A DNA stretch of 64,000 nucleotides, taken from Marsupella aquatica (lineage: Eukaryota; Plantae; Marchantiophyta). Below, in pieces: positions 21,784 to 64,000 of this stretch; position 1 is the stretch's first letter, and the number at the start of each line of letters is the position of its first letter. The stretch lies in contig OZ316891.1 of NCBI GenBank assembly GCA_973895155.1, forward strand, positions 27,905,145-27,969,144, given 5' to 3'. Position numbers and translations under genes: made by a program. The notes below the pieces were generated by a model. It saw only the letters and a list, made by a program, of their open reading frames with translations. It was not told where the DNA came from and made no database searches.

Positions 21784-22221
21784 ATGGATACTTCATGCGC
21801 TTCTCGGCTACTGTCAGACAGTTCGTTGGAGCGCAATGGAACGAGGGTTGACAGGTCTAGCGGAGCGTGCACTGCGAAGACAGGTGTCTTTGCCGCTTGC
21901 CGAATTTGTCGTGACGAGGACGACCTCACAAATCTGGATACTCCATGCTATTGCGCTGGTACGATAAAGTACGTCCATCGCAAATGTCTCCAGGATTGGT
22001 GTGATGCGAAAGGAAATAAGGTCTGCGAGATCTGCCAACACCGTTACAAAGATGGTCACAAAGCTTGTCCTCCATCTAGTCTTCAACAGGAGGCCAACCT
22101 TGACGAAGACGCCCAAATTCCCAATTTATTGGCCGAAATATGGGCTCGACTGGACGCTGCCCATGCGGCTGGTGTTGCCCAACTACAAGCCTACACTGCC
22201 CAACGGCAGGTGGGTCGGTAA
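21784..22221 (+). CDS. Intronless RING-CH (RINGv) protein, copy 2 (upstream part frameshifted, may be a pseudogene)
   Basis: CRICRDEDDLTNLDTPCYCAGTIKYVHRKCLQDWCDAKGNKVCEICQHRY. About 0.9 kb including upstream sequence (~21250-22080) is homologous to ~16250-17160. Confidence 0.78.
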   Translation: MDTSCASRLLSDSSLERNGTRVDRSSGACTAKTGVFAACRICRDEDDLTNLDTPCYCAGTIKYVHRKCLQDWCDAKGNKVCEICQHRYKDGHKACPPSSLQQEANLDEDAQIPNLLAEIWARLDAAHAAGVAQLQAYTAQRQVGR

Positions 22222-30700: not shown

Positions 30701-31465
30701 CATATAGTGAGACCCCTGAGCACAAATGATGTTCATACCATTGTTCATGGTCCCTTGAGAGTGGTTACAACAAGGACAGCAATGTGGACACAAGGAAGAC
30801 ATTTCAGGTGATCTCCATCTACCTTAGTAACCTTTGATTTGAATCACTTGGTTTAATTTAATTCATTTGTAATACAAGCACGTATATTGAAGAGGCAGAT
30901 TCTTGGTGTGTTCAATTAATTGGAATATGTTTGTGTCTATTTTTGTGTAACATATCCTTATGGTTTGATGGATTTTAGGATTTCTTCCCTTGATGAGAAG
31001 AGGGGTCGTACCTTTGATTGTGGAGTTCAAGGACAATTCTCTCAAGATTCCCGCAGCAGTCGCCATGACACAAATATTATTCGAGATGTTGTGCCACATT
31101 ATGGAAAGGTAGAAGAGATTCTAGTGATATCTTATGATGCACAATCAAAGTTTGAAGAGTATGTCTTCAAGTGCAAGTGGTTCAAAGTGAACCTTGTAGG
31201 TAACAATCCTACTGTGGTTCAAGATGAGTGTGGATTTACACGACTGAAGACGTCTGCCACTAGTTTCCAGCCATCTCATTGGCAAACATCAGAGCCGTTC
31301 ACTTTTCCAAGTCATGTGGAACAATGTTTCTATATTCCATACCCCCCAAACCCAGAGGAATGGTCACTTGTCATCACATATGTGCCACGGTCTCGATCAA
31401 TCGTTGGGGAAAAGCCTGATATTCTGGTTGTGTCCCAACCTGAAGATGATGAGGACCAAGTTTGA
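27767..31465 (+). pseudogene. tnpD: CACTA-2 transposase (exons ~27767-28943, 29041-30807 split by the MITE, 30979-31465), probably preceded by exon 26384-26608
   Basis: RHVRLGLASDGVSP, WPVVLMNYNLPPW, WTMHDYPG, LDPMHIEGN, LKTHDYH, FFDCQVHLLVHL, RWMYWLER and DUF4216-like FKCKWF...DECGFT...EPF.FPS.VEQCFY. Removing the MITE restores FPAITNDVHTIVHGP. Confidence 0.9.
30424..30720. mobile_element. 297-bp MITE with 15-bp imperfect TIRs and an 8-bp TSD
   Basis: TIRs CTCGGGGGTTTCACT and AGTGAGACCCCTGAG (13/15 match). TSD CACAAATG at 30416-30423 and 30721-30728. Confidence 0.9.
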
Positions 31466-37560: not shown

Positions 37561-39478
37561 GCTTAGCTCATGAATGCTTTTGGACCCCTTTGTCTGTTTT
37601 TCTAGCTTTCTGAATGCCATATGCAACGACATCTTTTACCCCATGACTAGGCCTAGCATCTGCTACCTACTTAGGGATTGTATGCCAACGCTACCTGAAA
37701 CCCCACCTCAATCCTTGAGACTGCTGTTGCTTTTTAATGCTGTCATTTGCACTTACACAGCCCAATGCTGTCAAATTTTGTTTTCAGTTTCAATGAAGGG
37801 CAATGTCTGGCGAGTAGTAGCAATAGCGATCAACCAAGAGCAGAGTCCCAGTTTGAAGGGCGTTTCCATTCTGGTCTGTATAGGTTTCCATGCATGTTCG
37901 TGCCTATCTCAATCTATTTTTTTTCCTGCTCTAAGATTGATTTTCCATTCTCGGATGTTCCTGGCTCAGCCCTGGGTTCGAAGAGGTTTTGGCAAAAATG
38001 AGTTTTGGCCTGTTTGAATTTGGGCTCTAGATGCCATACAATACAATGAACCTGTACTTTGAAGCCATTCATTGCGTCGAGACAGCGGTATTAGACGTCC
38101 CTTGTTCTCATTGTCATGATATTACCTGAAGAAAATAAAATGCAAGCTTTTAGCGTAGATCGACTGAAATTAAGGTACCATGTCAGAAGAGACAGCAGAT
38201 AGCCTTTTGCCCCGCCTTTTGCTTCCAGGTCGCTTTTTGTTGCGGTGGTGCTTCATTCCAAGGTGACGTTTTCTACAAAAATCCTCAACAAAGTTGCTAC
38301 AAACTCACTAATTCCCTTGGAGGGCGGTTCTGATTTAATTCATGAATTCCGTATTGTCTCCATCACTGTCGTTCGCTTCATCAGTTTTTTTCTATGCTTC
38401 CTATCTTGTGTTTCCACATATCTTGATCAGCGTGAAATGATCACTACAATAATTAACTGTGTAGCTAACTGTAGGTTGTGGAAAAACCCGAAGCTGGAAG
38501 CTTAATTTAATCTTACCTTTTGTTCTTGGCTCAGCCCAGGGTGGGCTGTGCATCATTTTATGAGCTCAGAACCATTCTGCAGAGCAAAATATATCGGTGG
38601 AATATATTTGTGAGATTTAAAGAAGTTGAATGAATTGATGTCCGTCAAGATCAATACGCAGGTTCTCATTATTTGTAGAAACAACAACAAATTGTAACAA
38701 TCTTTGACAATATGAAAGAAATTGATTGTGCTCTTCGTAGGAGATATACTTTGCTCATTGTGTGTAATGTTGTGCAAGAAACTCCTTTTCCAAAATCAAA
38801 GATTGTTTCTCTGATTTGAGGTGGATATTGGAGCTACAAGGACCTGCGGGTGAGCTTTGAGAATCTCCTTGCTGCAAGGTGAGAGTCTTTCCTGGTCGTG
38901 AACTTATGTCCTCTCATAGTCTCATTTAATTTTGAGGAACAATCCATATGCTTCCGTGGCATGGGTCATCTGTCAAATTTTTACTGTGCATTGCTCAAGT
39001 TTGTGGATGGTTCACTTCATTATTCGGGAATGTCCGCATTCACAGAATAGATTGCTTTTCTCCTGCCATCCCTTGGCCACTTGCTTTGCATTTCCATCTG
39101 CATTCCGCTTATTGCTCTGCCTCTCTCCCAATCTCCTTCAAATAACCATTACCACTTACAATATTCTATGAGGAGTAGGTTGTGTACCCAAGTAAATGAT
39201 TTCCAATCTAATATGCTCAGTGTTTACCTGTTGTTGGCATGCATGTACTATTCTATTGTCAATGAAGGCTAAAGTGGGGGCTGCCTTAACGTCAGTTGGA
39301 GTACTCTACCTCAATTGTATGTACAGTATCCTTCACTTGTGCACACATTTGCTTCACATGATACTCTAGAAGATAGTATGGAAGGGTTTGGAGTGGTCTA
39401 GAACAAATTCGTATGCTGTGCAATATGACACAGAAGAAAGAAGTGCAATTGTGTATTTGATTAGGTAGTGCTGCAATC

Positions 39479-42400
39479 ATGGCTTCTTCTAGCCAGGCTG
39501 GGTCACGCAACACTGGACATACAACAGAGGCAGTTCACCATCCAACTGTGCCTTCCTTCGATCCGAGTCGAATCCAACGTCGAGATGATAATTTATGGGC
39601 CCGAGAACAGAGAGCCTGTGCTGGTAGTGCTGATCATAGAATGTATTGCCCTTGCATGCGATGCAAAGGGAATTATAAGACCACTCGAAAGACTACTCGA
39701 CAACATCTTGTTAAGCATGGTCGCTACCCTGCTTGTAGAGTCTGGGTAGGAGAGGGTCAGGACTCTTCTGATGAGGAGTGGAGAACTGATTATATACGCC
39801 ACTATGGCCCTGAGGCATTGAAAGTAGGAAATTGCCCTGAGGCATTGAAGGCAGGAAATTGCCCTGAGGCAACCCACACAGACCACCCTGCAATAGATGT
39901 TGAACAGCAGGTCAGAGCTTTACTTGAGGAGACAATGGCTAGAGCTTATGAAGAAAGTGATGAATTTGTGGATAACGTAGCTCCTTTTGATTTAGACTCA
40001 ATGTTTCAGAATGATGAGAATGATCAAAACGATCAGAATGAGCAGAATGAGGCAGATACAGCCTCTACTGAGGCCAATCATGAGGGCACAAAACTCTCAG
40101 GACCTCCAATAGACCCTGTGCCTGTCCAAGGGTCTTTAGAAGAGGCCATGCGACCTTTATATCCAGGGAGTAAGATAGATGTAGTTTCTTTTATGTTGTT
40201 GTTCTTGAACATTTGTCACAACAATCGTTTCTCAAACATGGGAGTGAATGCCATGCTGTCTTTGTTGACTGAGCATGGAATGCCAACAGAGCACACTCTC
40301 CCTAAGAACCTATATGCTGCGAAACAATTACTGCGGAAACTAGGTTTAGATTATGAGAGAATCCCAGTATGTGAAAATGGATGTATGTTATTTAGAGGTG
40401 ACACTGCGCACTTGGAAAATTGTTCCAAGTGTGGCCAGCCAAAGATGAAGTTAGTGGGGAATTCAAAACAGCCTGTGAAGGTGTTGAGATATTTCCCTAT
40501 AATCCCTCGATTGAAGAGATTGTATGCCACGAAAGGGACTTCTAAACTCATGACTTGGCATCATGAGAACAAGAGCAAGGACAACATGGTCTGGCATCCA
40601 GCAGATTCAAAGGCATGGAAACATGTGGATACAGAGATCGACCCTGATTTTGCTGCTGAGCCAAGGAATGTCCGAATGGGATTGGCACTTGATGGGGTAA
40701 ATCCATTTGGGAATAATTCCACTGCTTGGTCTACCTGGCCAATCTTGCTGCTGAATTATAATATCCCTCCTTGGCTTACCACAAAAAAATTCTTTGTCAT
40801 GCTGGCTCTTCTAATTCCGGGCCCTGAGTCAGTAACTGAGGAGCAGTTTGATATATACATGGCTCCAGTCGTGGATGAGCTTGTGACACTATGGAAAGAA
40901 GGAGTGGATTGTTTTGATGTTCTACCAAGGCCTGGATTGCCTCAACAATTCAAGCTAAGGGCTTCGGTATTGCGGACAATCAATGATTACCCTGCATATG
41001 GTTTAGTTTCTGGCCAACAACATGCAGGGTATAGAGGATGTGTTGTTTGTGGGCCAAAATGCATGGCACAAGGTTCTTCACACTTGAAAAAGTTACTGTT
41101 TGCTGGCCATCGTCGATGGTTACCACCTAGGCATCCTTTTCGCAATCAAGAAGTGGCAAAATACTTTGATGGGGAGGTTGAGGTAGAACCTGCACCATGT
41201 AGAATGTCCAGCTCTGATAGGCTACGTTGGGGAGAGGAGACAACTGCGTATGTGAAAAAGAAAGCAGGGAATAAATTTGATGATGATGATTCTCCAATAA
41301 AGACGTATGGAGTGAAGAGGGCTACTGGATTATACAAGTTGCCTTACTGGAGTGTAAGTATCTGGTTCCTGATTGTCCAATCCACTTAGTTTGTGTACTC
41401 CTATGCAGTAAAGTTCTGCATTCTTGATTCTAACTCACTTTGTATTGTACTGTCTAATGCAGCAACTTCTCATCAACCATTGTCTTGATCCAATGCATTG
41501 TGAGAAGAATCTTGCCCACAACATTGTACATACTATCCTGGGAACTAAGGATACTCCTGCTGTTCGAGAGGACATGAAAGACCTGCAAGTGCGAGAACAC
41601 CTGTGGCTTGTACCGAATAAGGATCCAAAAGGTCCTAAGGTCATGCCACCAGCCCCATATTGCTTGAGTAAGAGTGAGAAGACAAAGTTCTTGGAGGTAT
41701 TGTTGACCTTCAAAGGGCCCACTGGTTTTGCTAGTTCTTTGGCTAGGTGTGTTACAGTCAAGAAGAAGTTATCTGGGTTGAAATCTCATGATTTCCATCA
41801 CCTCATGCAACAAATTATCCCATTGGCAACTATGGGATTACTTGATGAAGGTGTTCGCTTGGCCATCGCTAGGGTGAGCAATGTGTGGCGTAACATTTGT
41901 GCCAAGGTTTGGGATCCTTCACAGTACAATGACCTGATGATGGATGTTGCATTCACACTCTGCATTATGGAAATTCACTTCCCACCAAGTTTCTTTGATG
42001 TGATGACCCACTTGATGATTCATGTAGTGGAGGAACTAGACCTGTGTGGCCCAGTGAACATTAGATGGATGTATCCAATAGAAAGACATCTGAAGACCTT
42101 GAAAGGTTTTGTTCGAAACAAGGCACGTCCAGAGGCTTCCATGGCTGAAGGCTACATTCTAGATGAATCCATAGGATTCCTTTCTGAGTACATGATAGAT
42201 GCTAAAGGGACAGGAAAGAGAACATGGGACTTGGAGGAGAATCCTGGTGTTGCAGGCATTGTCTTGGAAGGAGCTGCAAAAGAGAGAACCATGCAATGGA
42301 GTGAAATGATAGCTATGCATCATTACATACTGGAGAATGAAGAGCAAGTGAAACCATGGTACAGGTATGAGCTTGGTCCATTGAGGCATGTTGATTATGA

Positions 42401-43334
42401 TTATCATTATTAATTGACAATCAATAGTCTAAAATGTTTTGTTGTTTGTGTGGGACTAGAAGTTGACATTGGTAATTGTTGCCATGCATGTAGGATTTAT
42501 GATGATGCCAATGAGGCCATCACCAAGCGCAGAGCAGAAATCAGGAAAGAATGGATGAAGAATCCAGGGAATCGAAAGCGTCCTGTACAGTATCCCTCTG
42601 ATTTGAGAGAGTTACCTCCTTTCACAGAATGGTTTGAAGCTTCAATTAGGTCCCACCATTTTGAGGATGAGGTTCAAAGATCTGTGCTGACAGGGTACAG
42701 TGTACCACCTAGTTTGAAGGTGTTGCAATATAAGGCCTGCAGAGCCTATGGGCATCATTGGAGAACCGTTCCATCACTTGGCTCTTTGATTGACTGTGAC
42801 TCTTTTGGGTTCAAGACATTTGATTCTGGGATGGCTTCTACATTCACTGAGAAGCAAGTGAATAGAGCAGGTGCAACAATAGATGAGTTGGTGCAGTATG
42901 TGGGAGTGTTGACAGACATATTAGTACTAAACTATGGGGGATTGAGAAAGGAAGTGGTCCTTTTCAAAGGGCGATGGGCAAACCCATCTTGGACTCCTAA
43001 AGCCTCTGCAAGTATGAGGTATTCAGAGTCTGGCCTTTGGCAGGTGAATTTTCAGAAGGAGCTTGGTGCTTCCAAAAGAATGGACTATGTATTCCCACGG
43101 CAGTTAGAGCAAGTGTTCTTTTACCCGAATGAGAAGGGGATTGCATGGAGGACAGTCCTCCACAAAGAATCCAGGTCGACAAGGGTGGCCGGTGAATATA
43201 TGGAAGTTGATTTCCATGATACTATGGAAAACAATGCCAAGTATCACATACAGCTAGCAGAAACCTATACCAGTAGATCGCAGCCTAGCCCAAGTACTAC
43301 CGACAAAGGAAAAAGGAAGTATAAAAAGAAGTAA
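39479..43334 (+). CDS. tnpD: CACTA-3 transposase, spliced 39479-41353, 41463-42364, 42494-43334; about 1205 aa, frame intact
   Basis: Same motifs and intron positions as 2911-6904; the splices give a 3618-nt continuous frame. Confidence 0.93.
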
Positions 43335-47949: not shown

Positions 47950-48485
47950 ATTTTGCGAAACATCTTGCAAAACCCCTACACCCGCAAACTCATCGCTACA
48001 TTTGCGATACTTAACTGCTCCCTAATTGCCATCATCCCCTCATCGCAAACTTCCGAAGATACCACCATCTCAAAGTTGCGAAACCAAAACATTCACAAAA
48101 TGAGACCCTAGACAGGCACAGGATTTGCGAGCCTATTACTATTGCAAGTTAGCCATATATTCCACAAACATCGCTCATTTGCGAGACAATAAGACTCGCA
48201 AAATATTTTGAGATGCTTAAATATTCGCAACCATTTAGTTTTCCGGCGCATCTCAATGAATTTGCGAAGCGGTAAAGATCGCTAACTTGTTCAATGGTAA
48301 TTGCTTCGGAAATGTTTTGCGATACCTGAAGTGTCGTAAAATGTTGCGATGGTCTAAGTTTCGCAATTATGTGTTGCGATGTGTGTAGATTCGCTAAGTG
48401 CGATGCGTATCGTATCGCAAGTTTAGCGATGAGATTAATCTTGCAAAGCTTTCTTCCTCTTGTAAAATGCCTTCGCAAAATTGGC
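47950..48485. repeat. TTGCGA/TCGCAA subterminal motif array of the CACTA end at 48500
   Basis: Many tttgcga/tcgcaa-like motifs in both orientations just inside the terminus. Confidence 0.8.
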
Positions 48486-48500
48486 AAATATGTAGTAGTG

Positions 48501-50240
48501 ATTTTTTACCTTGTCTCTCTTTATGTGCAATAGAGACCACAGTGGAGAGTTAAGAAGAAGATAACATCTAATGTCACTTGCATGGGATAGTTTCTCAAGA
48601 CAAGGCCAAAGAATTGTTAGAAGAAAATTATCTCCACCATTGGCATGCGTGTAGGGCACTGGAAATAGTCCGGTCATGCTTGGGTTGGCAAATGCCTTAA
48701 GGGGGGAGTCATCCACAAGGAGGGTGTTGGTTTCATCATATAGATTTCCAAATCCACTCCATACCACCCAAAAATCCTTCATTAGCACATTTGCCTTTCC
48801 GTTTGTAATGTCACGCCTTTGAATGCCTGTGTCAAAGGCTTCCACCTGTGTGAATACAAACTTAAGTTTCGACCGCTCCTCAGCACTGAACATCATGTTC
48901 AACATTTTCACTGTTTGATGTACCCCAGCACATGTCCAAATTGCAATGTCAAATCGGTCAAAAACCAACTTTAGAAACTCATGGAGCCCTGGCCTTTCTG
49001 TGTACATGCGACTAATTCCATTTTTTCTATCCCAATGCACTCCACTTGGGGTCACAACATTTCTGGATTTGCCCTTGCTTTGGAATTCAACTGAATCCCA
49101 AAGTATTTTGTTAAGATCCAAAATCAGCAATTTGCGCTTGATGGAACAAGGTCTTGGTTCTGCAAGTGCAACAAATACCAATCTTAGAGAAAAAACCACA
49201 TTTGAAGTTTGGATAGAGATCATCTCTGTCAATCCAACACAAGTGGCCAACCACAAAAAAAAACATTTGCATACTGACCGTATTCATTGAGAAACCGTAA
49301 AGAGGAGATGGATATTGATACTCATGCTCTAATTATTGTTAAACTTGAAGTATAATTATACAGACTATATTATATCAAATTGATAAGGTCACATCGCTCA
49401 ATCTAGACCTTGGCCAACAATGAGATCCATATTCATCAATCAAGATATCATCACCGAGTTCTTGTTGGATCTCATAATTGACATCGGAGGTACTCTCCTC
49501 TACCCAATAAGGTGCCTGCAGACCAAACCGGAGTTATCAATCCCAATTCTCCACTTCTATAAGTTGGATCTTTCTTGTGCTTTTTGTACGAGTCATTGTT
49601 CAAAATTGATTGAGCAGCATCCAACGCAACTTCAGTTCCTACATCGGGTCCACTTTTCCACACGTAACATCGACAATCATATTCAAGTGACTTATATCCA
49701 GTTGATCCTACTCTCTTCCCTTTCTTTTTTGAGAGTGGAAGGATAACGGGACTTCTTGATTGTGATCGAACAAACACCAATTTGTCATCAGAAGCGGAAA
49801 AGAGTGTATCAGGACAAATTGAAGCACCTGCCTGGTTGTGGTCGTGGATGCACTTGCTTCATTCACGGGAATGTCAACTACTTGGATGGGCTGTGGTCTC
49901 AATCCCAATGTGTCGAGTTCATTGGACTCACCATGCCTCTCCGCACCTTGATTGAGAAGGTTGTTTGAAGAAAGTTTTTCAAACGTATCAACTTCCATCT
50001 CTTGTCCAGACACTTGTGGATGGAGACCATCTCTATCCAAGTTATCATCATATTGGCCCTCGTTGGGGCCCATGGGGGCAACATTTGTAATTGGTGAACT
50101 GCAAGGTGCAGATCCAACAATCATATCGTCTTCCACAAGGTCAATATTTTCACCCTTGCCAACTCGGTCATCCAAATTCTTCATGTATGCCCCCTCCGAT
50201 GGCCCATCGTCTTTGACTAATTGGTCAGGGGTATGATAGC
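48501..50240 (-). pseudogene. FCP1/NIF (CTD-phosphatase-like, HAD fold) domain gene; last exon ~48501-49158 is cut by the CACTA end, upstream exons approximate
   Basis: KRKLLILDLNKIL...ERPGLHEFLKLVFDRFDIAIWTCA...KDF..VW...NTLLVDDSPLKAFANP...GLFP. The HAD motif I reads DxN. The frame runs into the CACTA terminus at 48500. Confidence 0.8.
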
Positions 50241-50860
50241 CATGACAGAAAACAGAAAACAAAAAACCTGTTACCAGGGGTTTATTTTCTGTTAACAGGG
50301 AAATTGTACCTGTTACCAGTAAGCTTGTCCCTGTTACCAGTTTTGCCTGAACCATAACGTGCATATCCACCACTCTAAGGTGCATATCCACCACTCTAAT
50401 GGCATAATTTTTTGGGGGGCAATAAAGTTTAAAACTAACAATTATTTTGTGCCATCCGATGGATGAAGTGTACTATCAATCCTCCATTGACACAACAATT
50501 TATTGTAGAAGATAAAAAACATGGTATTAGGAGTGTGCCTAAAGAAACATTCATGCAAATCAATCTATTTTCATCGCCAAATAGTGACCCTTAGAGTGGG
50601 ACCCACCATAGCACATGTCAATCGTGGAGTCCAAATCAACCCAATCTAAAGGAGTTGATTAAATGGACCTTGTAACGTCACAAACAAATGACAAATCACA
50701 TCCTCGAGGCTTTGAAGATAGTAGACAATTTAATCAACTTACACATTTTAAATAAAACAAGAGGTCATTCTTCCACAATGCACGTACATAATGAAGCAAT
50801 GAATATCCGGTTTCCTAGAACCAGCGCCCGACGCTAACCAACAAAGTCTCAATAAAACAA

Positions 50861-53800
50861 CTAAAATATCCGTTGGAAAAAGACAAAATAGGGAATAACC
50901 GTTATATTGAACGACGACCTATTGGGCAGTTTCGATCTCTCACATAAGCCATTCAAGTTCTGCCTCTCCAGCACAAGCCTGACTTTGCCTAAAGTCAAAA
51001 TAGGTTGGCTACAAAGAGTCGACTCCTCAATCTCAAGTTTGAAAACATTTATGTACACCGAGTATAGATGTTTGCAAGGCATGTACGACTTGCCACGCGA
51101 ATGTCGGAGGAAGAAGTCTTCACAAGAGCAAGCGGGGAAGATACAGATTTGGACGAAGTATGTGCTTGGTGATCAATGGTTCTCATGGGTTCAAATTCGA
51201 AATTGCTTTCCAAAAGCATTTCCGGTCTGAACATTCCATTCCCCATCCAAACTCATCACTTCTTGTCGTGCAGACTCCATTCGCTTCGTGTGACCCACAG
51301 TGAGATTAGACCGAGGCCTTGAGTTCCTCCCATTCTGACTACCAAGTCGGAGATTCGGCTCCAAAAACCTTATTGTTTCTGGGAACACGTTAACATTTAT
51401 CCTGAGGTCAAAAGCAGATGGCACAGATTGACTCAATCCTGTTGTTCGCGCTAAGACAAGTCCTTGCTCTTCCAGGAATGTAATTTCAGAAGGAGACAGG
51501 CTCGTACCCTTCAGAATAGGCAAAATGTCAAGAAAAGGAGGAAGCTTCTGAACACCACGACGCGGATGACTCTTGTAACACGCTTGGTTCAGGCAAAACC
51601 AAATCATTTCGGAGATGGGTTCGCCCCTGAAGAGACGATGGCCCTTCACGACAATTCCGACAACACCTTCAGACGAATGGAAGCCAACCTTCTTGATACG
51701 ATTTCAACACTCATCGCGATCCGAACTCCCATTTAGTGTACCATTGCATTGCGGACCTGCTCCATACTTCGATGTCCGTCGCAACTGCCACTGCCCCAGA
51801 GGGACATCCTTCTCTAGCACAATTGTGCATGGAAGTTGATTCTGAAGTGCTGCTAGGGCACTGAGCGGAGGTTTTGAGGATCTTGTTGTTCGGGTTGTTT
51901 GAGGAGTATAGTCCAGTGAATCAGTATCACTCTCTGATGTGACCATACCTGAGAGATTCACCGCCTTTGTGACAGGATGATCAAAACTTGAGGGAATAGA
52001 AGAAAAGTCAGTTCTGTTCAGGTTCTTCCTTTTCAAACCACGAGTATTTGGTGTGGTTATTAGAACGGTGTCATGCCGACGGGAATCTTGTGGAGAGACA
52101 GTCCCAGTTGCATGTCCCTTCCTCTTCATTGACTTCATCATTATATCTCCATTCAGGGGAGTACTTCTTTCCAAATCGAATTCTGCTGCGTTAGATAGAA
52201 GCATATTAGTCGCTTCTTCAAACAATCTTGGCGAACCTGCTTGATCGGCGGAACGGAACGCCAATTCCCATATAGTTGGCCCCTTCCCCCGGTTCAAGCC
52301 TTTACGGTATGCACTGTATCCGGCAACTTGAGATAGAGCACGGTTTTGGTCAACTTCGCAAGCTTCATAAAGACCGACCTTTTTCTTTGTAGCCGAGGCT
52401 TTCATGGACGCATGCCTTGATTCTGACCCTGTACAGTTGGGGATCAAGGCACCTTCCTCAACGCTTTTGCTCTGCCATACGAAAATGTCAACCGTAAGTA
52501 GTATTCTATTACCAGCGCCCGGCGCTGGCAACATAAATATGTAGAACAAGCCTGAAATACAATTTCAATGTTTAATACTGAATTCTAACTACATATTGGC
52601 TTCAATTTCTTGTACTACTTATTTTGACGTGTATGGAGAAAATAACCAGCGCCTGGCGCTAATATGAAGTTGATGAACATTACAGTCTAGATAGATGGAT
52701 GCCTTACCACTCGAATAAAATTGCCCCACTGGCGCCAACGAACAACCCACCAAGATATCCAGCTTTGCAGCATCTTCAGCTTTCCGGGGACACAGTTTCC
52801 TGATTGCCACCACACAACAATCTCTCGAGACACCCGGTATGCTGCCACAAATGATGGAGCATTTCTCAGTTTCTCCCAAAGTCTCCGATGCTCCGAATGA
52901 CATTCTTCCAGTACTCCTTCCTTGGAATGACGATGAAAAGATTGATAAAAGTGAAATGCATCAGAGCGCTCCTGTGACGCCAATGACATGGTCCATATTT
53001 TGTAATCTGATTAAGTAGGTTGCTGTATGCAAGGAGTAGCTATTGATATTGCATAACAATTAGCAAGATGGCAAGAATAAGGGCAATCATGGCGTTAAGA
53101 GTAGGGAAATAAAAGCTATGTCGCAGGTGGTCGGCGACCATATCTCTTTCAATATGTCACCAAATCCGGATCTGTAAAGAGCATTGGAAAGATCTGGTCA
53201 AGGCGAGTAAAATCGATATAAAACACTCGGGAAACGGAGGTGTATTAAGAAAGATACGGCCTGATTAGTGTGACGGGTTAACTTGTGGCTGGAATTAGCG
53301 GATTCGGCTTCAGTTTCGGGTTAACCCAAGCTCGACCACGGCTTAGCTTATGTGAGCACGGCTTCAGCTTAGCTCAGGTCAGCACGGCTTCAGCTTAGCT
53401 TAGGTCAGCACGGCTTCAGCTTAGCTCAGGTAAGCATGGCTTCAGCTTAGGCTTAACCTAGGTTCGGATTAGATTGAACTCGGGTTAGCCTAAACTCGGG
53501 CTCAGGTTAGCATAGGTAAGCTCGGGTTTGGGCTCAGCTTAGGCTAGGTTAGCCGAACTAGGGTTAGCTATGTAACTCGGGTTAGCGCAGCAGTGAGTAC
53601 CCCCTCTCGGTTGCGGGGGCATAACTCTCTCTGTATTTGACCAAATCGGCTATAATTGACCTCGTTGGAAAGAGGAGCTCAAGCCGCTTCCAACGCTGTT
53701 ATCCACGCAGCAAATGGTTGAATACAGAAATCGGGAGAGGAGGCGTAAGCTCGCAAAAACAATGGAGGAGGGCCGAATCCGAAGTACATAGCCAATTCGA

Positions 53801-56800
53801 GATAGAAATAAAGTTGCGAGTTAGGGTTCAGTAGTTAGAGATAGTGGCGGCTCTATTAGGGCTGGGATGGGGCTCCAGCAGCGTAGCATCCACCCATTTG
53901 GGCTCAATGAGAGAGTATATAGAGCATCCCTCCGGTAGAGGCAGGGAGGGGACTTCAGTTGTGTGATCTCACTTACTCTGAGCAGCGGGGAGGAGCTCTG
54001 TGCAAGCAAGGCTAGACTTGGACGCTGTGTGTTGGGGAGAGCTTGGTTGTGCTATTACTCAGGGAGTAATCAGCCAAGCTTCACAGCAACGGGTTGCTAG
54101 GTTTGCGAGCTGGATTGTGGCTCTTTCTAGTGGGCAGCACAACTGGGTTCTTTTCCCCCGATATAGAGCCTTGGTGATAGGTGATGTATTGGTGATTGTA
54201 AACTGTGGGGAGGATTTCAATTCGATTTGCGGTGGGCACATTAGGGAGGCTGAGGTACTGATTAAGGGGCAGCAGGAGGAACATTTACAGTTCAGTCTGG
54301 CAAGGCTACGTGACCCATGGGGAGTCCCGGCCTTTGTCTGGTGGAGAGCACTAAGGGATCTATGGCCAGAGCTGAGCTTGCAGGGCAAGCGTGAGGCCGG
54401 ACCTCATTGCAGTCTGGGGTAGATCGCCGTTAGGCCTGGTACCAGCTTTGAAGTCGAGTCAACTATGCATGTGTAACTTGACGTTCTGAATTGGAGGTGT
54501 GAGATCTGTATGTGCCCCCAAGAATGAAGTGCAGTGAAGGAGGTTGAGTTCAGGATTGGGCTTGCAGGGCAAGCACGTCACAATCTGGAGGAGACAGCCT
54601 TCGGCCCTAGTGTTCGGATCAAGTGTTCTCAATGAACTATTGTGCACATCTTTGAATCTAATTGAGTTTTCCTCTCAGGCCTCATTTCTCTCATGGATGT
54701 GTGTGTGTGTGAGGCAATCTGAGTGTATGATGGAACTAGCAGCGCCACTGAGAGGTGTACCGGGTGCATTGAAGCGGGCTGGGTGAGGACTGTCATAGCT
54801 CTGATTGTTGAGAGTGGAATGGCAGAGTGGTGGGGCAATGGCTTAGAAGTCCCTAAGCCGGGAATCAGTCAGGAGTCACTGGTTTATGGGTACATTCCGG
54901 CGGCGGAATAGAAACATACCTATGACAGTAAGCATATGTATAGACCTATGCGCACCGTAGCGCTAGGCCCTGTGTGTACGGGCCCGATATGAAGACCCCT
55001 TCTCACCAGAACTATCATGAGCGCAGATGTGATCCCCAACCTTGGTTCCTTGGGATTGAGCTTGGGTGATGTGTGATAGAGTCTTGCTATGATAGTCTGG
55101 TGTTAAGGGCATAAACTGGTGTTTACCGGCATTCACAACATCCCTTCATGATCCTCAGGTACAAGGAGATGGTTTTGGCACCCATAGTGACGTCTTTGGT
55201 GTTAAGACCCATGTCAATCGCGTGACAGCTCCCTCTCCGGGTCCGAGTGTCCACCAAAAAAAACATTTCGCACTGCATTCCATCCAGCTTGTGCATTGTC
55301 AGCCATAAATCGTTGGATGACAACCTCCTGAAGTTCATTTTCTTTGCAAACCTCAATCATCACCCTCCATGCCTTTTCGAAGGACTCAGTGTCTTCACCT
55401 TTCAACTCGCATGTGAAAATTGTACACAGTGCACGGAAATTGTGGTCGTAGACGTGTGCGCTAAAAGTAAACCAATCCGTGGTGACACGCTGCATCACAT
55501 CGAAACTTACCCAAGCTCCTTCGAGTCTTCCACCCGGTTGCATCTGCCTCAAAAGATCCACACCGGAACCGTGACCTTTCACGGTCATTTTAAAGATGTG
55601 AGGCCTATCGTTCTGACATCCCTGACCTGGAAGCAAATACCTCTAGAGAAACGACACATGAATCCTCCTCTACATTTGCGAGAGAAAATCTAATTCACCC
55701 CGACCTTTTTGGTCTATCCTAACGCTCCGACAAAGAGATGCAAACTTCTGCGGAGTGGAAAGGACCATCAGAGACTTCCATATTTCAGTTTCTTCGATAT
55801 CGACCATGTCGTCAACATGTTCGCAGAGAGATTTCACTAAGGACCCTGTAGCAGAATTCAAGATCCCTGCCGGTTTTGACAGAGGATTGGCTTCATGTTT
55901 TTTTAATTGGATCCTCAGCTATCTTCTCCGCACTCCTACAGAAGGTTTTTCTACCTGGATGGTTGTGCTCACCTATATGAATTGCGAGGCGGGACATATG
56001 ACTACATGTTTCCGCATCAAGTAATACTTGGGGGTACATGTAAAACAAACGGGCAGGGCAGTACTTCACGCAAAAAGGAATCTGTTCGCAGTAATGACAA
56101 ACAACACCTTCCTCTTCGATGAAAGATCCCATAGCATACTGACCATTGAGCTTTGGAGTACCCTGCCATGCCTTAGCATTTGCCTTCTTCTTCCTTTGGA
56201 AATAGTCGCAGGACTTGTTCCTGCATTCAATGAATCCCGTACAGGTAACCTTCCCAAACTGCCAAAGGTTTTTAGGATGAACAGTTGCAGTTGTTGGAAA
56301 TATGCGTGTCCAAATATAACAATCTTTGGCACGATCCATGTCCCTAAGCCTAGAGCCTTTAGAGAGCATCTTATCAATGGGCGGCAACTCAAACACGACG
56401 TTACCATTGTACTTAGTTGGCAGACAGGACACTTGTTCATGCCTGAAATCACTTGCTAATATGAACCGTGACAACTCACTATGACCAGTTGATTTGAGTA
56501 ACGTATCCATCGCACTGCGCCGGTACACGACCTCCAACTGCTTAGAGCTTCCCGGAGTCTCAGCTTTCACGACAGCAGGGAGCTCAAAAATATGAATATT
56601 TTTGGATATTTCTATTAATACTTACTCTTTCTATCATTCTAATTTTCTCAATCTCAAAATTGATAACCCCTGAAAATAAAGGACCAGAAAAATGGACCAC
56701 TTATGAATCAGGCATAGAACCTACGAAAGGCGCTCGTATCCAATTTCAAATTAACCTAAGTCAATATTTAATTTTTTCGGAAAACTTTGGGATTGTTTAA

Positions 56801-57249
56801 TATTATAAACACACAGAACCATCTTATTAATGTTCGGGATGGATTGGTGTGGTTCCTCCATGCCTGAGACACCAGAATATCAACCCATAAACAGAAAGGG
56901 GGGGCATGTCCAAAAAAGTATCCTGAAAGAACCTCTTATACCCTGCCCCTTTCTTCTTCGACGGTGGACTTAGAGTACGATCTCCATCCTCACTTGAAGA
57001 AATCTCAACCACATCACATGGAACCAGCGGGAAACTGGACAGTCCTGCATACTGTCTTAAATGAACCGAGTACGAGATCCCTGCGTAGAGATGCCAAAAC
57101 CGTTCACCATCATCGACATTGAACGTTGCAGCATCCTCGATATCATCAATGGATTCGAGCTCTCGAACAATGGCCTCAATGTCATTCATCTTCAAATCAA
57201 ATCTCCCGCAGAGATACCTCTCCTAGACCTGTTTGTACGTATCTTCCAT
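50861..57249 (-). pseudogene. MULE/MuDR-like transposase: GCM/WRKY-like Zn finger, DDE domain and C-terminal SWIM finger; several nonsense codons; split by a solo LTR
   Basis: CTGFIEC..C...CHYC...CPAR...HIGEHNHP. Catalytic WVSFD, FMADNAQAGWNAVRNVF, DPERE|RSDAFHF (rejoined across the LTR) and NCTGSESRHASMK. SWIM YFVQI..FPACSCEDF...PCKHLYSV. An in-frame intron lies at 52472-52707. Confidence 0.85.
52973..55227. mobile_element. Solo LTR (2255 bp, probably Ty3/gypsy-type) with a 5-bp TSD
   Basis: TGTGACGCCAATGACATGG...CCATGTCAATCGCGTGACA, with GCTCC at 52968-52972 and 55228-55232. Excision restores the transposase frame. Internal ~25-bp tandem gcacggcttcagcttagctcaggtca at ~53355-53450. Confidence 0.9.
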
Positions 57250-58276
57250 GGGGACGGGGATAGTCACAATATCTTCAGGACCGAATCGAGAAAGAACGAT
57301 AGACCGAGACATGGTGAACAAAAACAAAAACCGAGGGCTATAGCGTTTGAAAGAAGAAAAGTTCATGGTATTGTTCAGCTTATATCTGTCGAACCTGGGA
57401 ATTTGACGTTAACCGATCCGTTTGTATACGACATAAAACATAGACGATGGAGGATCCGTTGGCACCATAAATGATTTTTGTCATTTTTTCCCTGAGAAGT
57501 CCGGATGTCAGACATGAACATATTGCTAAAAAGATCACCAACCTTACTTAAACAGACCATAAGATATGACAAGGTATTGTCAAATTTTAGTAGCGCCTGG
57601 CGCTAACTAAAATACGCCACTAAAAATGTGTCTGAAATCTTGACATTCCAAACTAGCGCCCGGCGCTAGTATAGAATAAATTCCCTGAAAATGAACATTA
57701 TGACCACATACCAGGTGGTAATTGGGAATAAATGGTGCCTTCAAAGGATGGTTTTGATTGATTATGGATGATAAATGAACATTTATACTAGCGCCGGGCG
57801 CTAGTATTACATTTGAGAAATATTTCTCCGTAAACGATGTACTGAAGGATACTTTAATAAAATATGGGGGTGGAAAGGCCAAAATTTATGTCATAGCTCC
57901 TTCAAAAAAGACCTCTAAATTTCTTCCAGTTTATACTAGCGTCGGGCGCTATTATAAGCATACTCTAAATTGTTCACCTTGATGGTCATCATTAATGCTA
58001 GCGCTCGGCGCTAGTATTGATATGATGTTAGGAAATGTCTTTAACGGTAACATTCAACGGTAACTTATGACTTCCGTGTGTGTTACGCATCTTCTACCAT
58101 TTGATTTTGGTAATTAAACCTTCCGAATACAGACGTTGGAAACCGCCAAACATCAGAGCTAATGGCTTTCCTCTAGGTTATGTCATCCTCCCGCTAGAAT
58201 ATATTACACGTTCAGAGATGATTATAGTTCCATAATTTCATTGTACGATAGTTCGTACGCTTCTAGAAGGAAGACG
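57250..58276. promoter_or_regulatory. Putative bidirectional promoter between the transposase and the ParB-MTase gene, with five palindromes
   Basis: Divergent ATGs at 57249 (-) and 58277 (+). Palindromes at 57592, 57655, 57790, 57938 and 58000. Confidence 0.6.
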
Positions 58277-61200
58277 ATGGAGGTATTCCCCTCTTCTTCC
58301 AAAGGGTATAGTGCGGTTCCTGACCAGGAGCGAGCTTATTCTGAATCTTCGCAGTCTTCGTTTACTGGTTCAGTCTATACACGTCGTGTAACTCGTTCCT
58401 CAAAGTTGTTGCCGCTCACTTCTGTCAGCGGTGTTTTGGGTCCAAATCCTTTGCGAAGAAAGATGGACAACGTAGACACAATTGCGATCCAGGATGTTGC
58501 GGATTGCGCGCTTGTTGAGACTGATCTCATTTCGAAACATGTCATGTCTTTTGGAAAGGATTCTCGTGGATTTGACAAGGAGCCGCCTTGAATCCCTCTG
58601 TGTTGATTGGTTCACATGGAGGTGGTTCATACTCTGTAGAAAGACAGCTCTTCCATCGAGAAGCTGAAAGACTCTTTTCGTAGTATGGGTTACAACTCTT
58701 CGATAGGGATGCGTTTCTATGTGCAGCCAACGGATGAGAATGGAATTGTTCTGACCTGTACCCAGGACATTCGTGATTCATGGGATCCAATATGGCAATT
58801 GGAGAACGAGAAGTTTGAGGCTGAATGCGAGGCTGACCCGGATTTTCTCGTCTTGAAGGATAAGATGTTCTTTGTATTCGATGGAAATCACAGGCTGTAC
58901 TCCTGGACACTTGTAACAGAGGAGAACCCGGACAATCCAAAATATCATCCTCGTGTGCTCTGTACAATATTTAAAGGAGACAAGGGATCTCTCATTGAAA
59001 TTGAGGCAGCTATGCACACCGTGAATCAGTAAGTTCTCATGATTTCCAGTTCTTTCCTTAAATCTTGCGAGTGCTGTATTTACTAGCGCTCGGCGCTGCT
59101 TATACATGAATTGTTTTTCATTGACTCTTACTCTCAACGTTTGTTCGTGTAGGCTTGGCCAAGCAGTTGTAGAGCCTTGGATCCTGGATGCGAACAGAAT
59201 CAAACGAATTCTGGCGTATGACCTTGAGTATTACAATAAACTGATTGACCCGGGTAATTTCAAGAAGTTTGAAAGCATTCGGCTGAAAACTCGGAAGGGG
59301 TCATGGTATACGAAGAAGATGCCACAAGAAGCACTTGCTTACATTCTTTGTGAGAATAAGATAAAGTCGTACTCGCATCAATTCAAACTCGACATGGAGG
59401 CAGCGGAGGCTCAAGGGAGTCCATGGTCGGCGCACGAGATTTCAAAACGGCATGCGGCCATGATGAAAGATGCAACCAAAGATTGGGCAGTGAAGTCTTC
59501 AAAAATTATGCCCTTATTAAGTCCTGAATTTGAAGATTTCCTCAGTTTATGTGCAGAAATGTATGCTGTCACAGAGAGAAACAAGAGAGAGAAGAAGCCT
59601 GACACCGTTGTATGTACGATGGACCGCGCACGATTGTTCACCGCTGTTTCTGCTCTAGACCCGAAGTTACGAAGCACTTTACTTGTGGCACATTGCAATC
59701 CTGAGCTGCGGAGACAGTTTTTTCACCCAGCAAGTGTTAACGATGATCCAGTCAAACAGTGGTGCCACACTTGGATCACTTGGAATAGTGTGGAGGGAAT
59801 TGCTGCTGGCATGTTACATTCATGTCTACGTGAAGTTGAGCAAACCATGCCCGCAATTAGATTGGAAGAGTGGAATTGTAGTTCGTTTGATGATCTAGTT
59901 CAGTTTGTTACAAATGAATTCAAGAGATTTGGTGATTCCATGAAGAATAAGTTCTTTCACACTATGTGGCCTTCAAAGTACCCTGACAAAGAAGATTACA
60001 CCCAGAGAAACCAGAAGCGAGCGAAGAGGTTTGTGTATAGGTTCTACATGCACATGGAGGTAACCAAACCTGATTACTTCTGGGCATATCCTGCAGCTTT
60101 TATGAAGTGGATTTCAATAAGTGAAGATGATGCCTTGGCTGATTTGTACTCTATGTACCCCACGGAGGGCATATTTCCTCCGAGACCAATGACAGAATGG
60201 GAGAGAACTCACTGCCCCTGGTATCTAGATACAGATAGATGGGATTCTCCTTTTGATCAAAGGGAAAAAGATGCCTTCCATAAGCTTTCAAAGTCTCAGA
60301 TGCCAGCAAAACTTGTGTCCGACATGAAGCAGGGTCTACTTGACGATGTAGACAAGTCTGCCACAAACTTGCAAACTATCTGTCAAACAACTGTTGTGCA
60401 TGTGGACCGCAGTCGCAAACCTCGCGCGAAAGCCAAAGCGGAGCTAGCAGCACCGAGCGAGTCTACTAAATCTGGAAAGAAGAGTAAGTATTGCTATCCA
60501 TGATTTTGCCAGCGCCAGGCGCTGGCAAAAAATATTCTGTTGAGGGTATTCTCTTTCTTGGTTATTAGGCTTCGGTTGCGACTTAAGTGAATTGCATTTG
60601 GTTAGCGCCAGGCGCTAGCTTCTTTCAATACTTTAAAAGTACTTATTCTAACTACGACCTGGTTATATTTTAGGAGGGAGGAAGTCTAATACGGTGGGAA
60701 CGGGAGATACGAAAAAGGATGCTACACCTGAAGTTTCCGAGGCAAACACGGGAGCTCGATCGGACCCCATTACTCCAGTCAACAAAGGGAAGGTTATAGT
60801 TCCTATCGACGCCACGAGTACCAGGAAGAAACGAAAGAGAGCTGTCGAAGGTGGACAATCTTTAAGGGAGAGTGTTATAGCTTCTGGTTTCCAACGTGAA
60901 GTTGGAAACTTCAAAACAACTGTGTCTCGCCATTGCATGGTTGAGACAAGCCTTTCTGAATTTTTTGACTCGACTTTCAACAAGGAGGAGAAGCCCGAGT
61001 GGGTTAGTGATGTGGAGAAATGGGGAAAAGACCTCGTTAAGTTGGGATTTAAAGAGAAGGGAGTTGTTTGGGGGGGAAAAGTAAGATCGTTTGGAGTGGA
61101 TGCCGGCTTCATTTACCTACCGATCGGGTTCAAACCATCTATCATTGATAAGAAGGTTCCTAAATGGAACATTCCAGATCACTCAATGGCTAGATCTTTT

Positions 61201-62363
61201 TTCAAATCCATGGATCCATTTTTATCAGATGATGGGTTCCTTGTAATTCTACACAATGGGGAGTACGATCCCATGTCGCAAGTCATTGCTGCCTGTCAGG
61301 AGTCAAGGAAATTTCAGTGTATATGCTTGCATAATGTTGTGATGTCTGACCCGATGTATGCGGCAAAGACAGACCGAGAGATGTTTACCCTCAGGCTCGA
61401 CATATTTGGCCGAATTAATGGGAAATGTAAAATTCCCAAAGACCCCAAATTTTGGCCGCTGTCCATCAGTGAGGACCCTTCGGTTACCAATTTGATCGAA
61501 CTCTCTTCGCTCAAATCAGATCCATTCCCGCAAATGGAGTTTGCTAGAAATGCTCGTCTGTCTGTGGGTTTTATGCAATCTGTTATAGAGCTTGTCACAC
61601 GGCCTCGTGATATTTTTATGGATTGGACTGCTGGGGCTGGAGGCTCTTACATTGCTGGCGACTTCTCTGGACGATTTGTACTCGGGATAGAACACCGGAA
61701 AGAATTTATTGAAACCGCTTCAAAGGTTTTCATGGATTTGTTGTCTCCCAAAGAGATTGCAGTGTTACCTCCACCTGTTCCTACTGCCGACAGAAAAAAA
61801 AAGATAAGCTTCGGTCGGTTCTCAATTTTGATGCTGATGATGAATCGAGTGAAGGTGGAGAGGAACAAGGTACAAGAAACTCCGAGGAGGAAAAGGGAGA
61901 GCGTCGTGCAGCTGCAGATGAAACCGATAGTGATGACTCTTCCGAGTAATGTTCATAAACTCGTAAGCTTCTTTCTCCATTCCCGTCAATTCATAACATT
62001 TCTTTTGTTGTTTTGGGGAAAGGCGCCTTACAAAATGGACTTTGTTATATCAGGTCAGAGTGGAATGCAAGGAGATGATTCAAACTACAGAGGAAGATCG
62101 CGAGACACAACGTAGAAACACCGGAAAAACCATTTGTTCTTCCCTCCTATGCAGAGAAAGCCGCAAGGAAAGCAGAAAGTGCAAGGACACTTTGCTGGGA
62201 AAACAAAGGTCTTCGGTTACGAAGGGGTGTTGACTGAAAGTTCATTAAACATCCTTATGTTGATGACTTCTCCCGCAGCCAGTACGTAGATGATGAGGCT
62301 GTGTCCACGGACAGATCCCAGAGTACAGATTCTGGTTCCGACTTAGAATCTTCGGAACCGTGA
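58277..62363 (+). pseudogene. ParB/sulfiredoxin-like domain plus beta-class N4C/N6A DNA-methyltransferase-like fusion gene (exons 58277-59028, 59153-60483, 60674-~61945; 3' end approximate); three premature stops in exon 1
   Basis: ParB-like IPLC*LVHMEVV.TL*...IEKLKDSF.SMGY...FFVFDGNHRLYSW. MTase-like VDAGFIYLPIG (motif IV position) followed by LSVGFMQSVIELVTRPRDIFMDWTAGAGGSYIAGDFSGRFVLGIE (motifs X-I-II). Both GT-AG introns keep the frame. Confidence 0.78.
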
Positions 62364-62689
62364 GAAGTAGTGGGTAGTTGAGGCTAAATCTTTTAGCAGC
62401 GCCCGACGCTTGTAACATCTGTATTATTTCCCTCTGTTGAGGGTCCTTTTAAATTGTTGATTTCTCTCTACTTGTTGATTACTTTTGACTTCTGTTCTTT
62501 ACAAGCGCCTGGCGCTCGCCAAATGGAATCTCTAAATGGCCGTTTAGTCTTTGTTGTTTCCTGTCAACGGTCATCATCATTGGATACCAACTGCCATTTG
62601 GATTGTGTTCTTTAGTCAGTCGTCGGAAAACCGTTGGGGACCATAGTTTCCGGACGATGATTCCATAGTTTAGGGACTGGGTGGAAGGG

Positions 62690-63000
62690 ACGACTATAGT
62701 TTCAGTTTAGGTTTGTTCGGGACGATGAGAGTTGGGGACGTCGATAGTTGAGGACGACGATAGTTTCGGGAGGATGATAGAACGGGACAATAGAACGGGA
62801 CGATAGAACGGGAGGGGAGACTTTGTTTCGGGATGATGATAGAACGTGACGATAGAACGGGACGATACTTCGTTTGGGAAGACTTTGTTTCGGGAATATG
62901 ATAGAACGGGATGTTAGAGCAGGGTGATAGAATGGGACGATACCTGTTACCAAGGTGAAGATAGTTTCGGGAGGCAATAGAACGGGACGATGATAGTTTG
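62690..63000. repeat. Short degenerate tandem repeats GATAGAACGGGAC / GACGATAGTTT
   Basis: At least 7 atagaa(c/t)g(g/t)ga units plus a duplicated gactttgtttcggga. Confidence 0.8.
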
Positions 63001-63148
63001 ATGGTCGTTTCGAAACGGTAGTGTACGCGGACCTTTATCTGGCGTCTTAGTCTTCGCGGACCTTTCTTTGACCTTTGTCGGCTATAGCACTCGCGGACGA
63101 CGTTCTTATGGGAGGAGAGGTTACATATTAGATCAGGATCTTTGAAAC

Positions 63149-63610
63149 ATGGCGAGTCAATATGAGCCAATGGATTGGGAGGCAACTTTTCGTCCTTCTC
63201 GTGTGCGTCCGGAAGAGAGCCATTTCAGCTCTTTTGAATCGCGGATGGAGACTGAAGAAACTGAAACTTCCACTTTTCGGAACCGTCATGCTCTCCCGTA
63301 TGATGAGGCTATTAGTCCTGGAGAGAAGAACATCCCTTGGATTGTCGATTCCCCTGCGCCTCCGTTCTCTAGTCGGTTTTCATCTCACCCGGGAGTTCTT
63401 GTTGATGGGGTACTCCCAATCGATCGAAGAGTACAAGAAATGTTCGGGCGAGTTGATTTTAAGGACAGTAATATTCCTAATGAACATTTTATGAGGGCTG
63501 TTCGTCGAGGACCTTCAGAGGGATACGTTCGTTTGCGTGGTCTCGGCTTCAAGAAAGATCGGCGGAGAGAAGCAACAGGAGTGGATGATGATTGCAACTC
63601 GGAAAGCTAG
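63149..63610 (+). CDS. Hypothetical 153-aa protein, probable accessory gene of the MULE unit
   Basis: Open ATG-initiated frame with protein-like composition, flanked on both sides by palindromes. No recognisable domain. Confidence 0.45.
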   Translation: MASQYEPMDWEATFRPSRVRPEESHFSSFESRMETEETETSTFRNRHALPYDEAISPGEKNIPWIVDSPAPPFSSRFSSHPGVLVDGVLPIDRRVQEMFGRVDFKDSNIPNEHFMRAVRRGPSEGYVRLRGLGFKKDRRREATGVDDDCNSES

Positions 63611-64000
63611 ATGGAAATTTTGTTTTGCTGATCGCTTTAAGCTAGCGCCGGGCGCTGCTAAAGTTTTCCGGATTTTGTGGCATTGAAGTCGACCTCAGCT
63701 CTGGCGTTAGGGTTTTCCCGATTGTCTACTATTTAGGTTTTGGCTAGCGCCGGGCGCTATTGAAACGACAACGGATTTTGTGGGAGGGAATGGATCTTGA
63801 CTATGTTGTCTGGGTTTGGACGCATCTTGTCTCCAAGAAACGACTAGTTTTCTAGTTAGTTTTTGGCTAGCGCCGAGCGCTGTTCATGTATTAGTCAAAA
63901 ACCTCCGACGGTGTCGACCGTGACTTCATGGATGGGATTTTTAGGCCAGATTGTTGATGTTGATAACTGCATTTTGTATCACTTAAGTCGAGCGCGTTTT

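Follow-up and report, generated by a model that had tools for sequence, protein, structure and literature searches.

Dispersed palindromes in the non-coding DNA of a two-gene transposable element of Marsupella aquatica as candidate sites for an element-encoded dimer

A palindrome of about 19 bp occurs 16 times in a decayed two-gene transposable element of the liverwort Marsupella aquatica. The window in which it was studied, meaning the whole stretch of DNA that was analysed, is 64,000 nucleotides long (assembly GCA_973895155.1, contig OZ316891.1, forward-strand positions 27,905,145 to 27,969,144), and all coordinates below count from its first letter. The element takes up the window from about 50.3 kb onwards, with its right end lying outside, and carries a transposase gene on the minus strand and an accessory gene on the plus strand, arranged head-to-head with a divergent promoter between them. 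Judging from the sequence evidence, the palindromes are probably sites for a dimer that the element itself encodes, whether accessory protein or transposase. More tentatively, and with somewhat less than even confidence, we suggest that they are family-specific predicted sites for the accessory protein, the likeliest binder, which would thereby protect the element against CG methylation by its host.

Placement and form of the palindrome

Ten exact matches to the 13-mer AGCGCCNGGCGCT occur in the window (0.00 expected), and 17 matches (0.52 expected) when up to two mismatches are allowed (10 exact, six with one mismatch and one with two). The 16 copies with at most one mismatch all lie within 50823-63881; the two-mismatch match, at 54959, lies inside an inserted long terminal repeat (LTR), has a broken arm and is at chance level. 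Relaxing the search to three mismatches adds four further matches (17520, 21033, 37174 and 53676), none of which is in the element's own non-coding DNA, and therefore degraded copies are not being missed. A previous sequence-only reading of this DNA had confined the palindrome to introns and intergenic gaps, with two copies in the transposase intron, one and two in the accessory-gene introns, five in the divergent promoter and the rest just 3' of genes. Our counts confirm that distribution, the remainder being six. Non-coding DNA makes up 28% of the element by our exon models, in which the exon at 62024-62362 is a guess, and all 16 copies are non-coding, with none in a modelled exon (p ~1.4e-9). 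The three introns that bear palindromes are all GT-AG and splice in frame. The same reading had reported no copies in the inserted LTR or in the first 50 kb, which holds at up to one mismatch.

As had been noted, the surroundings of the copies are unrelated: the 40-bp flanks have no homology beyond that of shuffled sequence (best pair 36/80, null 95th percentile 37). Target-site duplications, which would have spoken for tiny independent insertions, are not consistently present either, the direct repeats around the palindromes being 2-5 nt long and inconsistent (no null distribution was computed for them).

The full site spans about 19 bp and forms a dyad, RCYAGCGCC-N-GGCGCTRGY, flanked by T-rich sequence and with its spacer fixed at 1 nt. 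When the 32 half-sites are pooled, AGCG and a purine at -3 are found in all of them, a pyrimidine at -1 in 29, C at -2 in 21 and each of the two inner C in 29, and positions -7 to -4 are T-rich. Lone half-sites number one in the masked element and two in the first 50 kb. Because the base identities and the 1-nt spacer are fixed, the purine at -3 is invariant and lone half-sites are almost absent, a predicted site for a dimer is the best-supported reading. The sequence-only reading had offered selected sites for a dimeric protein, or else hairpins; the former is the part that we retain, while hairpins appear quite unlikely for reasons given below.

Two of its descriptions of the site need amendment. 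The central base had been called free, and all four letters do occur there on the plus strand (C 6, G 5, T 3, A 2), but the centre is better described as having two states, S in 11 copies and W in five, which are one C>T change apart. The arms had been said to extend symmetrically but differently in each copy. The perfect palindromes of 23 bp (at 57785) and 27 bp (at 60504) are real, but the differing extensions are mostly a longer shared consensus, since complementarity within copies is about the same as that between copies (60 paired positions from -1 to -8 against 56.3 expected; permutation p 0.26, range 0.16-0.26). Copy-specific symmetry is modest (total arm extension 23 against 13.2 expected, p 0.04), and this residue therefore leaves room for template switching or hairpins.

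A diverged relative of the element, L001, has exons 46% and 65% identical to those in the window and its intron 1 at the same position and in the same phase. It holds no copy of AGCG-N5-CGCT. Its palindromes are of the form AGC-N6-GCT, and all 14 of them lie inside the 818-bp intron 1 (335-1152) in a repeat with a period of about 20 bp, a pattern that, as far as sequence can tell, matches family-specific motif turnover. The same intron also holds AGCT-based variants with other spacers. Scans for related loci yielded one locus in metagenomes and none in viral contigs or prokaryote genomes; scans for the motif gave nothing beyond isolated or GC-rich, chance-like matches in viral contigs (L002-L005) and none in prokaryote genomes. 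Homolog searches with the methylase exon and with the middle exon of the accessory gene returned a single protein apiece, and none was returned for longer ParB-like proteins.

Mutation pattern, accessory protein and competing explanations

The element is covered by contigs of all four sequencing runs used (three studies), with all 30 depth bins filled. Many variant contigs as well as near-identical pieces (e.g., three differences in 573 bases) align to it, and they skip both of its insertions; therefore, the window element is one decayed copy of a multi-copy family, although the depth of contigs was not taken as copy number. This allows changes in the window copy to be set against other copies. 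All six palindrome mismatches are C>T changes at the outer C of CCG, and all are in the central five bases. The sequence-only reading had correctly placed C>T and G>A mismatches in the centre, but their positions follow the CCG context and not the dyad: changes are seen at 6 of 22 CCG-outer cytosines and at 0 of the 42 remaining cytosines at positions 5 and 6 (p 0.001), and the changed cytosines are not dyad-symmetric. Position 58005 reads C in all four runs, and the mismatch there is therefore private to the window copy; the same kind of change is seen in other copies at 57663 and 57794. CCG cytosines are a host-methylated context in plants. The changes fit methylation by the host plant, and not an enzyme recognising CCNGG, with mutation of cytosines serving only as a proxy for modification. 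The high rate of CCG change in the motif is not fully explained in this way, because CCG-outer cytosines are not consistently hot in the host background (0/17 in a young duplicate pair, 2/7 in a 408-bp repeat and 5/20 in old pairs). Methylated CCG is described as under-represented in angiosperms (PMC5221884).

The arms have a different history. Their CpGs are intact in 32 of 32 cases, against 3 of 11 non-motif promoter CpGs lost in the window copy (p 0.013, with the contigs of the four runs as reference). The losses are at 57515, 57641 (45-100% of depth by run) and 57881; seven places found only in low-depth contigs from one run, X4, plus an X4-only change at 57759, were left out of this count. 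Among the 14 variable places listed on promoter contigs, none is in an arm and three are on CCG-outer cytosines of the motif, bearing in mind that an unlisted place does not prove identity between copies. CpG is also retained across the element, with an observed/expected ratio of 0.82 after removal of motifs and insertions, and of 0.76 in coding sequence only. Nearby, the ratio is 0.23, 0.36 and 0.28 in three elements that we take from their translations to be CACTA-like, 0.38 in what is presumably a copia fragment and 0.59 in the LTR.

The accessory gene is more than 1080 codons long; in the window copy, exon 1 is interrupted by three stops and one base is missing near 61793. Its protein consists, in order, of a DGNHR domain, a 443-residue middle and a beta-class N6/N4 methylase-like domain. 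The last assignment draws on PF01555 (E 8e-4, below the curated cut-off) and DpnA (E 7e-4) matches to the last exon, an Atlas score of 0.94 with 184 shared features, and an hhalign value of 94.8% over the half that binds S-adenosylmethionine (SAM). In an alignment to three phage methylases, the SAM-binding D..G.G region is kept, whereas the catalytic D-x-P-Y, present there as DLPY, DPPY and DIPY, is replaced by YLPI. A 62%-identical relative has YLPT, so that the DPPY-type motif is gone in both sequences, and its loss is therefore not decay of the window copy. Together with the CCG counts above, this argues against the suggestion in the sequence-only reading of a methylase with CCNGG targets. 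In the first exon, an FDGNHR motif is conserved in L001. We take the DGNHR motif to resemble a ParB/Srx signature, which profile and fold searches neither confirmed nor excluded. The two structure predictions, from alignments of two sequences, were poor (pLDDT, the predicted local distance difference test, 32.5 and 42.9) and gave uninformative fold searches, with no fold match for the latter model, that of the first exon; the middle domain had no usable Atlas match (best 0.87, recognition 1728).

If the accessory protein is indeed the binder, a dimer would recognise, in duplex DNA, the two halves of the site (T-tract, R, C, Y, AGCG), and its sites would gather where coding stays undisturbed. 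Occupancy would keep the arms unmethylated, or selection would keep them intact, and host methylation would still mutate the less important middle of the site. The methylase domain would serve as a binding or protein-recruiting module and not as an enzyme. Site and protein would change together between families, as with the VANC proteins of Arabidopsis, and occupancy of the palindromes would keep the element active against host CG methylation.

Several observations weigh against this scheme. Profile searches with the first exon gave no ParB match, and a helix-turn-helix was likewise not confirmed. The CpG contrast is not significant within the promoter alone (0/10 vs 3/11, p 0.21), and any protection must be local or historical, because the window copy has lost CpGs right beside motifs; moreover, selection in an unsampled active lineage accounts for intact arms as well as shielding does. 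The high CpG ratio of the element could stem from recent arrival in the host, and two other stretches of the window reach 0.61 and 0.68. The argument for family-specific motifs comes from one relative, whose tandem array could be an unrelated insertion. The nine palindrome spacings below 200 bp speak in favour of the scheme in clustering around multiples of a helical turn (10.38 bp as the best-fitting period, p 0.016 after correction for the scan), but the phasing was noticed post hoc, gives p 0.11 without two near-duplicate spacings, and is fitted about equally by periods of 14-16 bp. To these we add two further points that favour other explanations, namely the behaviour of the AtMu1 transposase and the folding of the flanks.

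The palindromes could be predicted sites for the transposase itself, bound through its Cys/His-rich N-terminal domain for self-activation or assembly of a transposition complex, with the accessory gene uninvolved. All of the sequence evidence for a protein site applies equally to such a binder, and the AtMu1 transposase is reported to bind and hypomethylate its own family (bioRxiv 10.64898/2026.08.24.746577). However, AtMu1 binds at terminal repeats, whereas the sites here are internal, extend over 13 kb and are densest at the promoter and the accessory-gene introns, and ParB-like genes are accompanied by inverted-repeat arrays in an unrelated transposon superfamily; we consider the transposase an unlikely binder. 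Hairpins or cruciforms, in DNA or RNA, would combine a conserved stem with a 5-nt loop that tolerates change, and would be extended by template switching. Every change does fall in the central five bases, the would-be loop, folding of the two longest copies reaches z-scores of about -5.4 and -5.8, and real flank pairs have a slight folding advantage over permuted ones (p 0.028 and 0.008), to which the excess arm extension may be added. Nevertheless, an element that is structure only would permit compensatory changes, yet all 16 copies share an identical core in spite of their unrelated flanks; covariation by position is about what is seen across copies, three of six folded copies are unremarkable (z -0.9 to -1.7) and an Rfam search returned nothing, which together make hairpins the quite unlikely alternative mentioned above.

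It is very unlikely that the palindromes are captured sites for a host transcription factor driving expression of the element. Five copies in a divergent promoter would suit such a factor, and nothing in the sequence evidence points to a particular binder, but the adjoining 50 kb of host and transposon sequence holds no copy, and one relative, L001, has a different palindrome. A 19-bp dyad is also long for a plant transcription factor. Less probable again is that they are methylation targets, at CCNGG, of an active element-encoded N4-cytosine (N4C) or N6-adenine methylase. The beta-class fold and the SAM-binding region are retained, and active N4C methylases are described in a liverwort (bioRxiv 10.1101/2021.02.12.428880) and in rotifers (PMC8885841); in contrast, the catalytic motif has become YLPI here and YLPT in the 62%-identical relative, and the changed cytosines follow the CCG context and not the dyad. 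We give least credence of all to functionless tiny insertions or remnants of local duplication. The tandem L001 array would be in keeping with these, as would two 3' copies that are alike at 84% over 38 nt, motif included, but the flanks otherwise lack homology, target-site duplication is inconsistent, and the CpG-rich core has stayed intact while the flanks diverged and lost CpG.

Returning to sites for an element-encoded dimer, a more far-reaching proposal can be built on them, which we regard as doubtful. A land-plant Mutator lineage would have a second, independently evolved anti-silencing system made from bacterial parts, in which a ParB-type clamp with a catalytically dead methylase loads at parS-like 19-bp palindromes in every non-coding gap, possibly helically phased, spreads, and excludes host CG methylation, with palindrome and protein matched in each family. 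Literature searches, made without Iyer et al. 2011 and the Ectocarpus and Bostrychia supplements, found neither the element nor such palindromes described in land-plant transposons, and brought up only the algal and Arabidopsis work cited here. The locus offers a candidate 19-bp site whose invariant positions are defined, a protein that could bind it, a footprint left by mutation and, in the same intron of a relative, a different palindrome. Self-binding can thereby be tested directly in a genome that is methylated and of plant type. If the hypothesis holds, there would be a second way for an element to escape silencing sequence-specifically, and epigenome editing would gain a supply of orthogonal protein-site pairs.

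The element and the rest of the window

Table 1. Positions in the window of the genes, insertions and palindrome copies of the element.
Feature	Position	Strand	Remarks
Mutator-like transposase gene, decayed	50861..57312	-	broken by stops or frameshifts and two insertions
Transposase intron	52472..52707	-	GT-AG, splices in frame; 2 palindromes
Solo-LTR-like insertion	52973..55227		TG...CA, 5-bp duplication; skipped by contigs of other copies
366-bp insertion in transposase 5' exon	56584..56949	+	ndhC-like fragment (PF00507, E 1.2e-6); skipped in contigs of 3/4 runs
Divergent promoter region	57313..58276		5 palindromes
Accessory gene, three modelled exons	58277..61949	+	exons 58277-59028, 59153-60483, 60674-~61949; start codon assumed
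Open reading frame, 153 codons	63149..63610	+	no family hits; inside multi-copy element; 3 palindromes downstream
Palindrome copy 1	50823..50835		one mismatch (CCG-outer C); ~25 bp 3' of transposase stop
Palindrome copy 2	52514..52526		transposase intron, exact
Palindrome copy 3	52648..52660		transposase intron, exact, W centre
Palindrome copy 4	57592..57604		promoter, W centre; no other letter listed in contigs
Palindrome copy 5	57655..57667		promoter; other family copies vary at 57663 (G>A, CCG-outer C)
Palindrome copy 6	57790..57802		promoter, perfect over 23 bp; other copies vary at 57794 (C>T, CCG-outer C)
Palindrome copy 7	57938..57950		promoter; one mismatch, common to some contigs
Palindrome copy 8	58000..58012		promoter; one mismatch at 58005 (4/4 runs read C, 93-100% of depth)
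Palindrome copy 9	59085..59097		accessory-gene intron 1; one mismatch
Palindrome copy 10	60511..60523		accessory-gene intron 2, perfect over 27 bp
Palindrome copy 11	60604..60616		accessory-gene intron 2, exact
Palindrome copies 12 (62398, one mismatch) and 13 (62504)	62398..62516		3' of accessory gene
Palindrome copies 14-16 (63644, 63746, 63869)	63644..63881		3' of 153-codon open reading frame

The transposase has a Cys/His-rich N-terminal part, a DDE-like middle and a SWIM-like CxC...CxH end, motifs that we take to be those of a Mutator-like enzyme; Pfam gave no match for its fragments. Terminal repeats and a target duplication of 8-11 bp are described as hallmarks of the Mutator superfamily (PMC6446971). 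The 366-bp insertion, which has loose-end contigs of its own, is perhaps a small mobile element that has picked up plastid DNA. The 3' gap of the element also contains six GGGACGA repeats (62687-62990), and CCTGTTACCA is found three times near 50.3 kb (50267-50340) and once at 62943; these are possibly subterminal repeats or a second motif.

To the left of the element, the region 47950-50470 contains a NIF/HAD phosphatase-like open reading frame on the minus strand (48435-49283; PF03031, E 5e-15), adjoined by a cluster of 15 TTGCGA/TCGCAA hexamers (47953-48473). It may belong to a separate element that repeats a motif of its own, or be the left-hand part of the palindrome-bearing one. The window in general looks transposon-rich and plant-type, with strong CpG depletion in its three CACTA-like elements and copia fragment. 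The CACTA-like transposase regions are at 2884-6904, 27767-31465 and 39461-43334, and two of them are about 80% identical. A 408-bp unit with inverted repeats inside it is repeated seven times in tandem at 32392-35285, and three long near-perfect palindromes lie close together at 10809-11020, two with common 12-bp arms and one with 15-bp arms. A PHD-like Cys-rich open reading frame (1642-2313) and a RING-like one (21676-22221) were also seen.

Comparison with known systems

Bacterial ParB/parS systems have clustered palindromes beside the parB gene. The element resembles them in that its palindromes are clustered, comparable in length and next to a gene whose product has a GxxR-like motif, but no ParA-like Pfam match was found among the open reading frames scanned, and segregation would make no sense for an integrated nuclear transposon.

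A similar self-binding design has already been hypothesised for algal transposons. Sola1-1_Ec32 of Ectocarpus is described as encoding an accessory protein with ParB-like and DNA-methyltransferase parts that is proposed to bind and modify its own element, and the paper cites Iyer et al. 2011 for similar proteins (PMC12477816). By its parts list it is like our element, with an accessory protein of about 1100 residues that lies opposite the transposase and has an N6/N4 methylase-like domain. However, it belongs to the Sola superfamily, in a brown alga, its methylase is treated as active, and the main text of that paper contains no occurrence of 'palindrom' (PMC12477816). The red-algal Plavaka elements with PAG2/PAG3 are reported to carry a ParB-like accessory gene with inverted-repeat arrays, proposed as self-binding sites, and PAG genes to occur on Chondrus Mutator elements also (bioRxiv 10.1101/2025.02.11.637652). 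Like our element they carry a PF01555 methylase, but as a separate gene, with the ParB part fused to a 2-oxoglutarate oxygenase; their repeats are tandem arrays beside PAG3, whereas the sites here are dispersed through all non-coding gaps. Self-binding in the algal elements is itself a proposal, and the likeness to them is one of parts.

Closer to the host in question are two systems of land plants. AtMu1 is of the Mutator family, as our element seems to be, and, as reported, would offer a parallel in sequence-specific self-binding with local hypomethylation, but it binds terminal inverted repeats and has no accessory gene (bioRxiv 10.64898/2026.08.24.746577). In the VANDAL elements of Arabidopsis, VANC is described as a family-specific anti-silencing accessory protein (PMC5735166; PMC10398659) that binds short motifs in the introns and intergenic DNA of these Mutator-like elements and removes methylation (PMC5735166). 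The resemblance extends to a Mutator-like element with one or more accessory genes, short motifs in introns, intergenic and terminal non-coding DNA, and different motifs in related families. The differences are in the parts. As described, VANC motifs are 8-9 bp long, non-palindromic and in tandem repeats, whereas here the site is a dispersed 19-bp dyad, and a tandem array is seen only for the different palindrome of L001. The VANC protein has DUF1985/DUF287, for which Pfam scans of 18 and 8 protein pieces gave no match here, and our accessory protein is methylase-like. Demethylation was demonstrated for VANC, whereas for our element it is inferred. By analogy, the best reading is that the element would work like VANDAL/VANC without being a member of that group.

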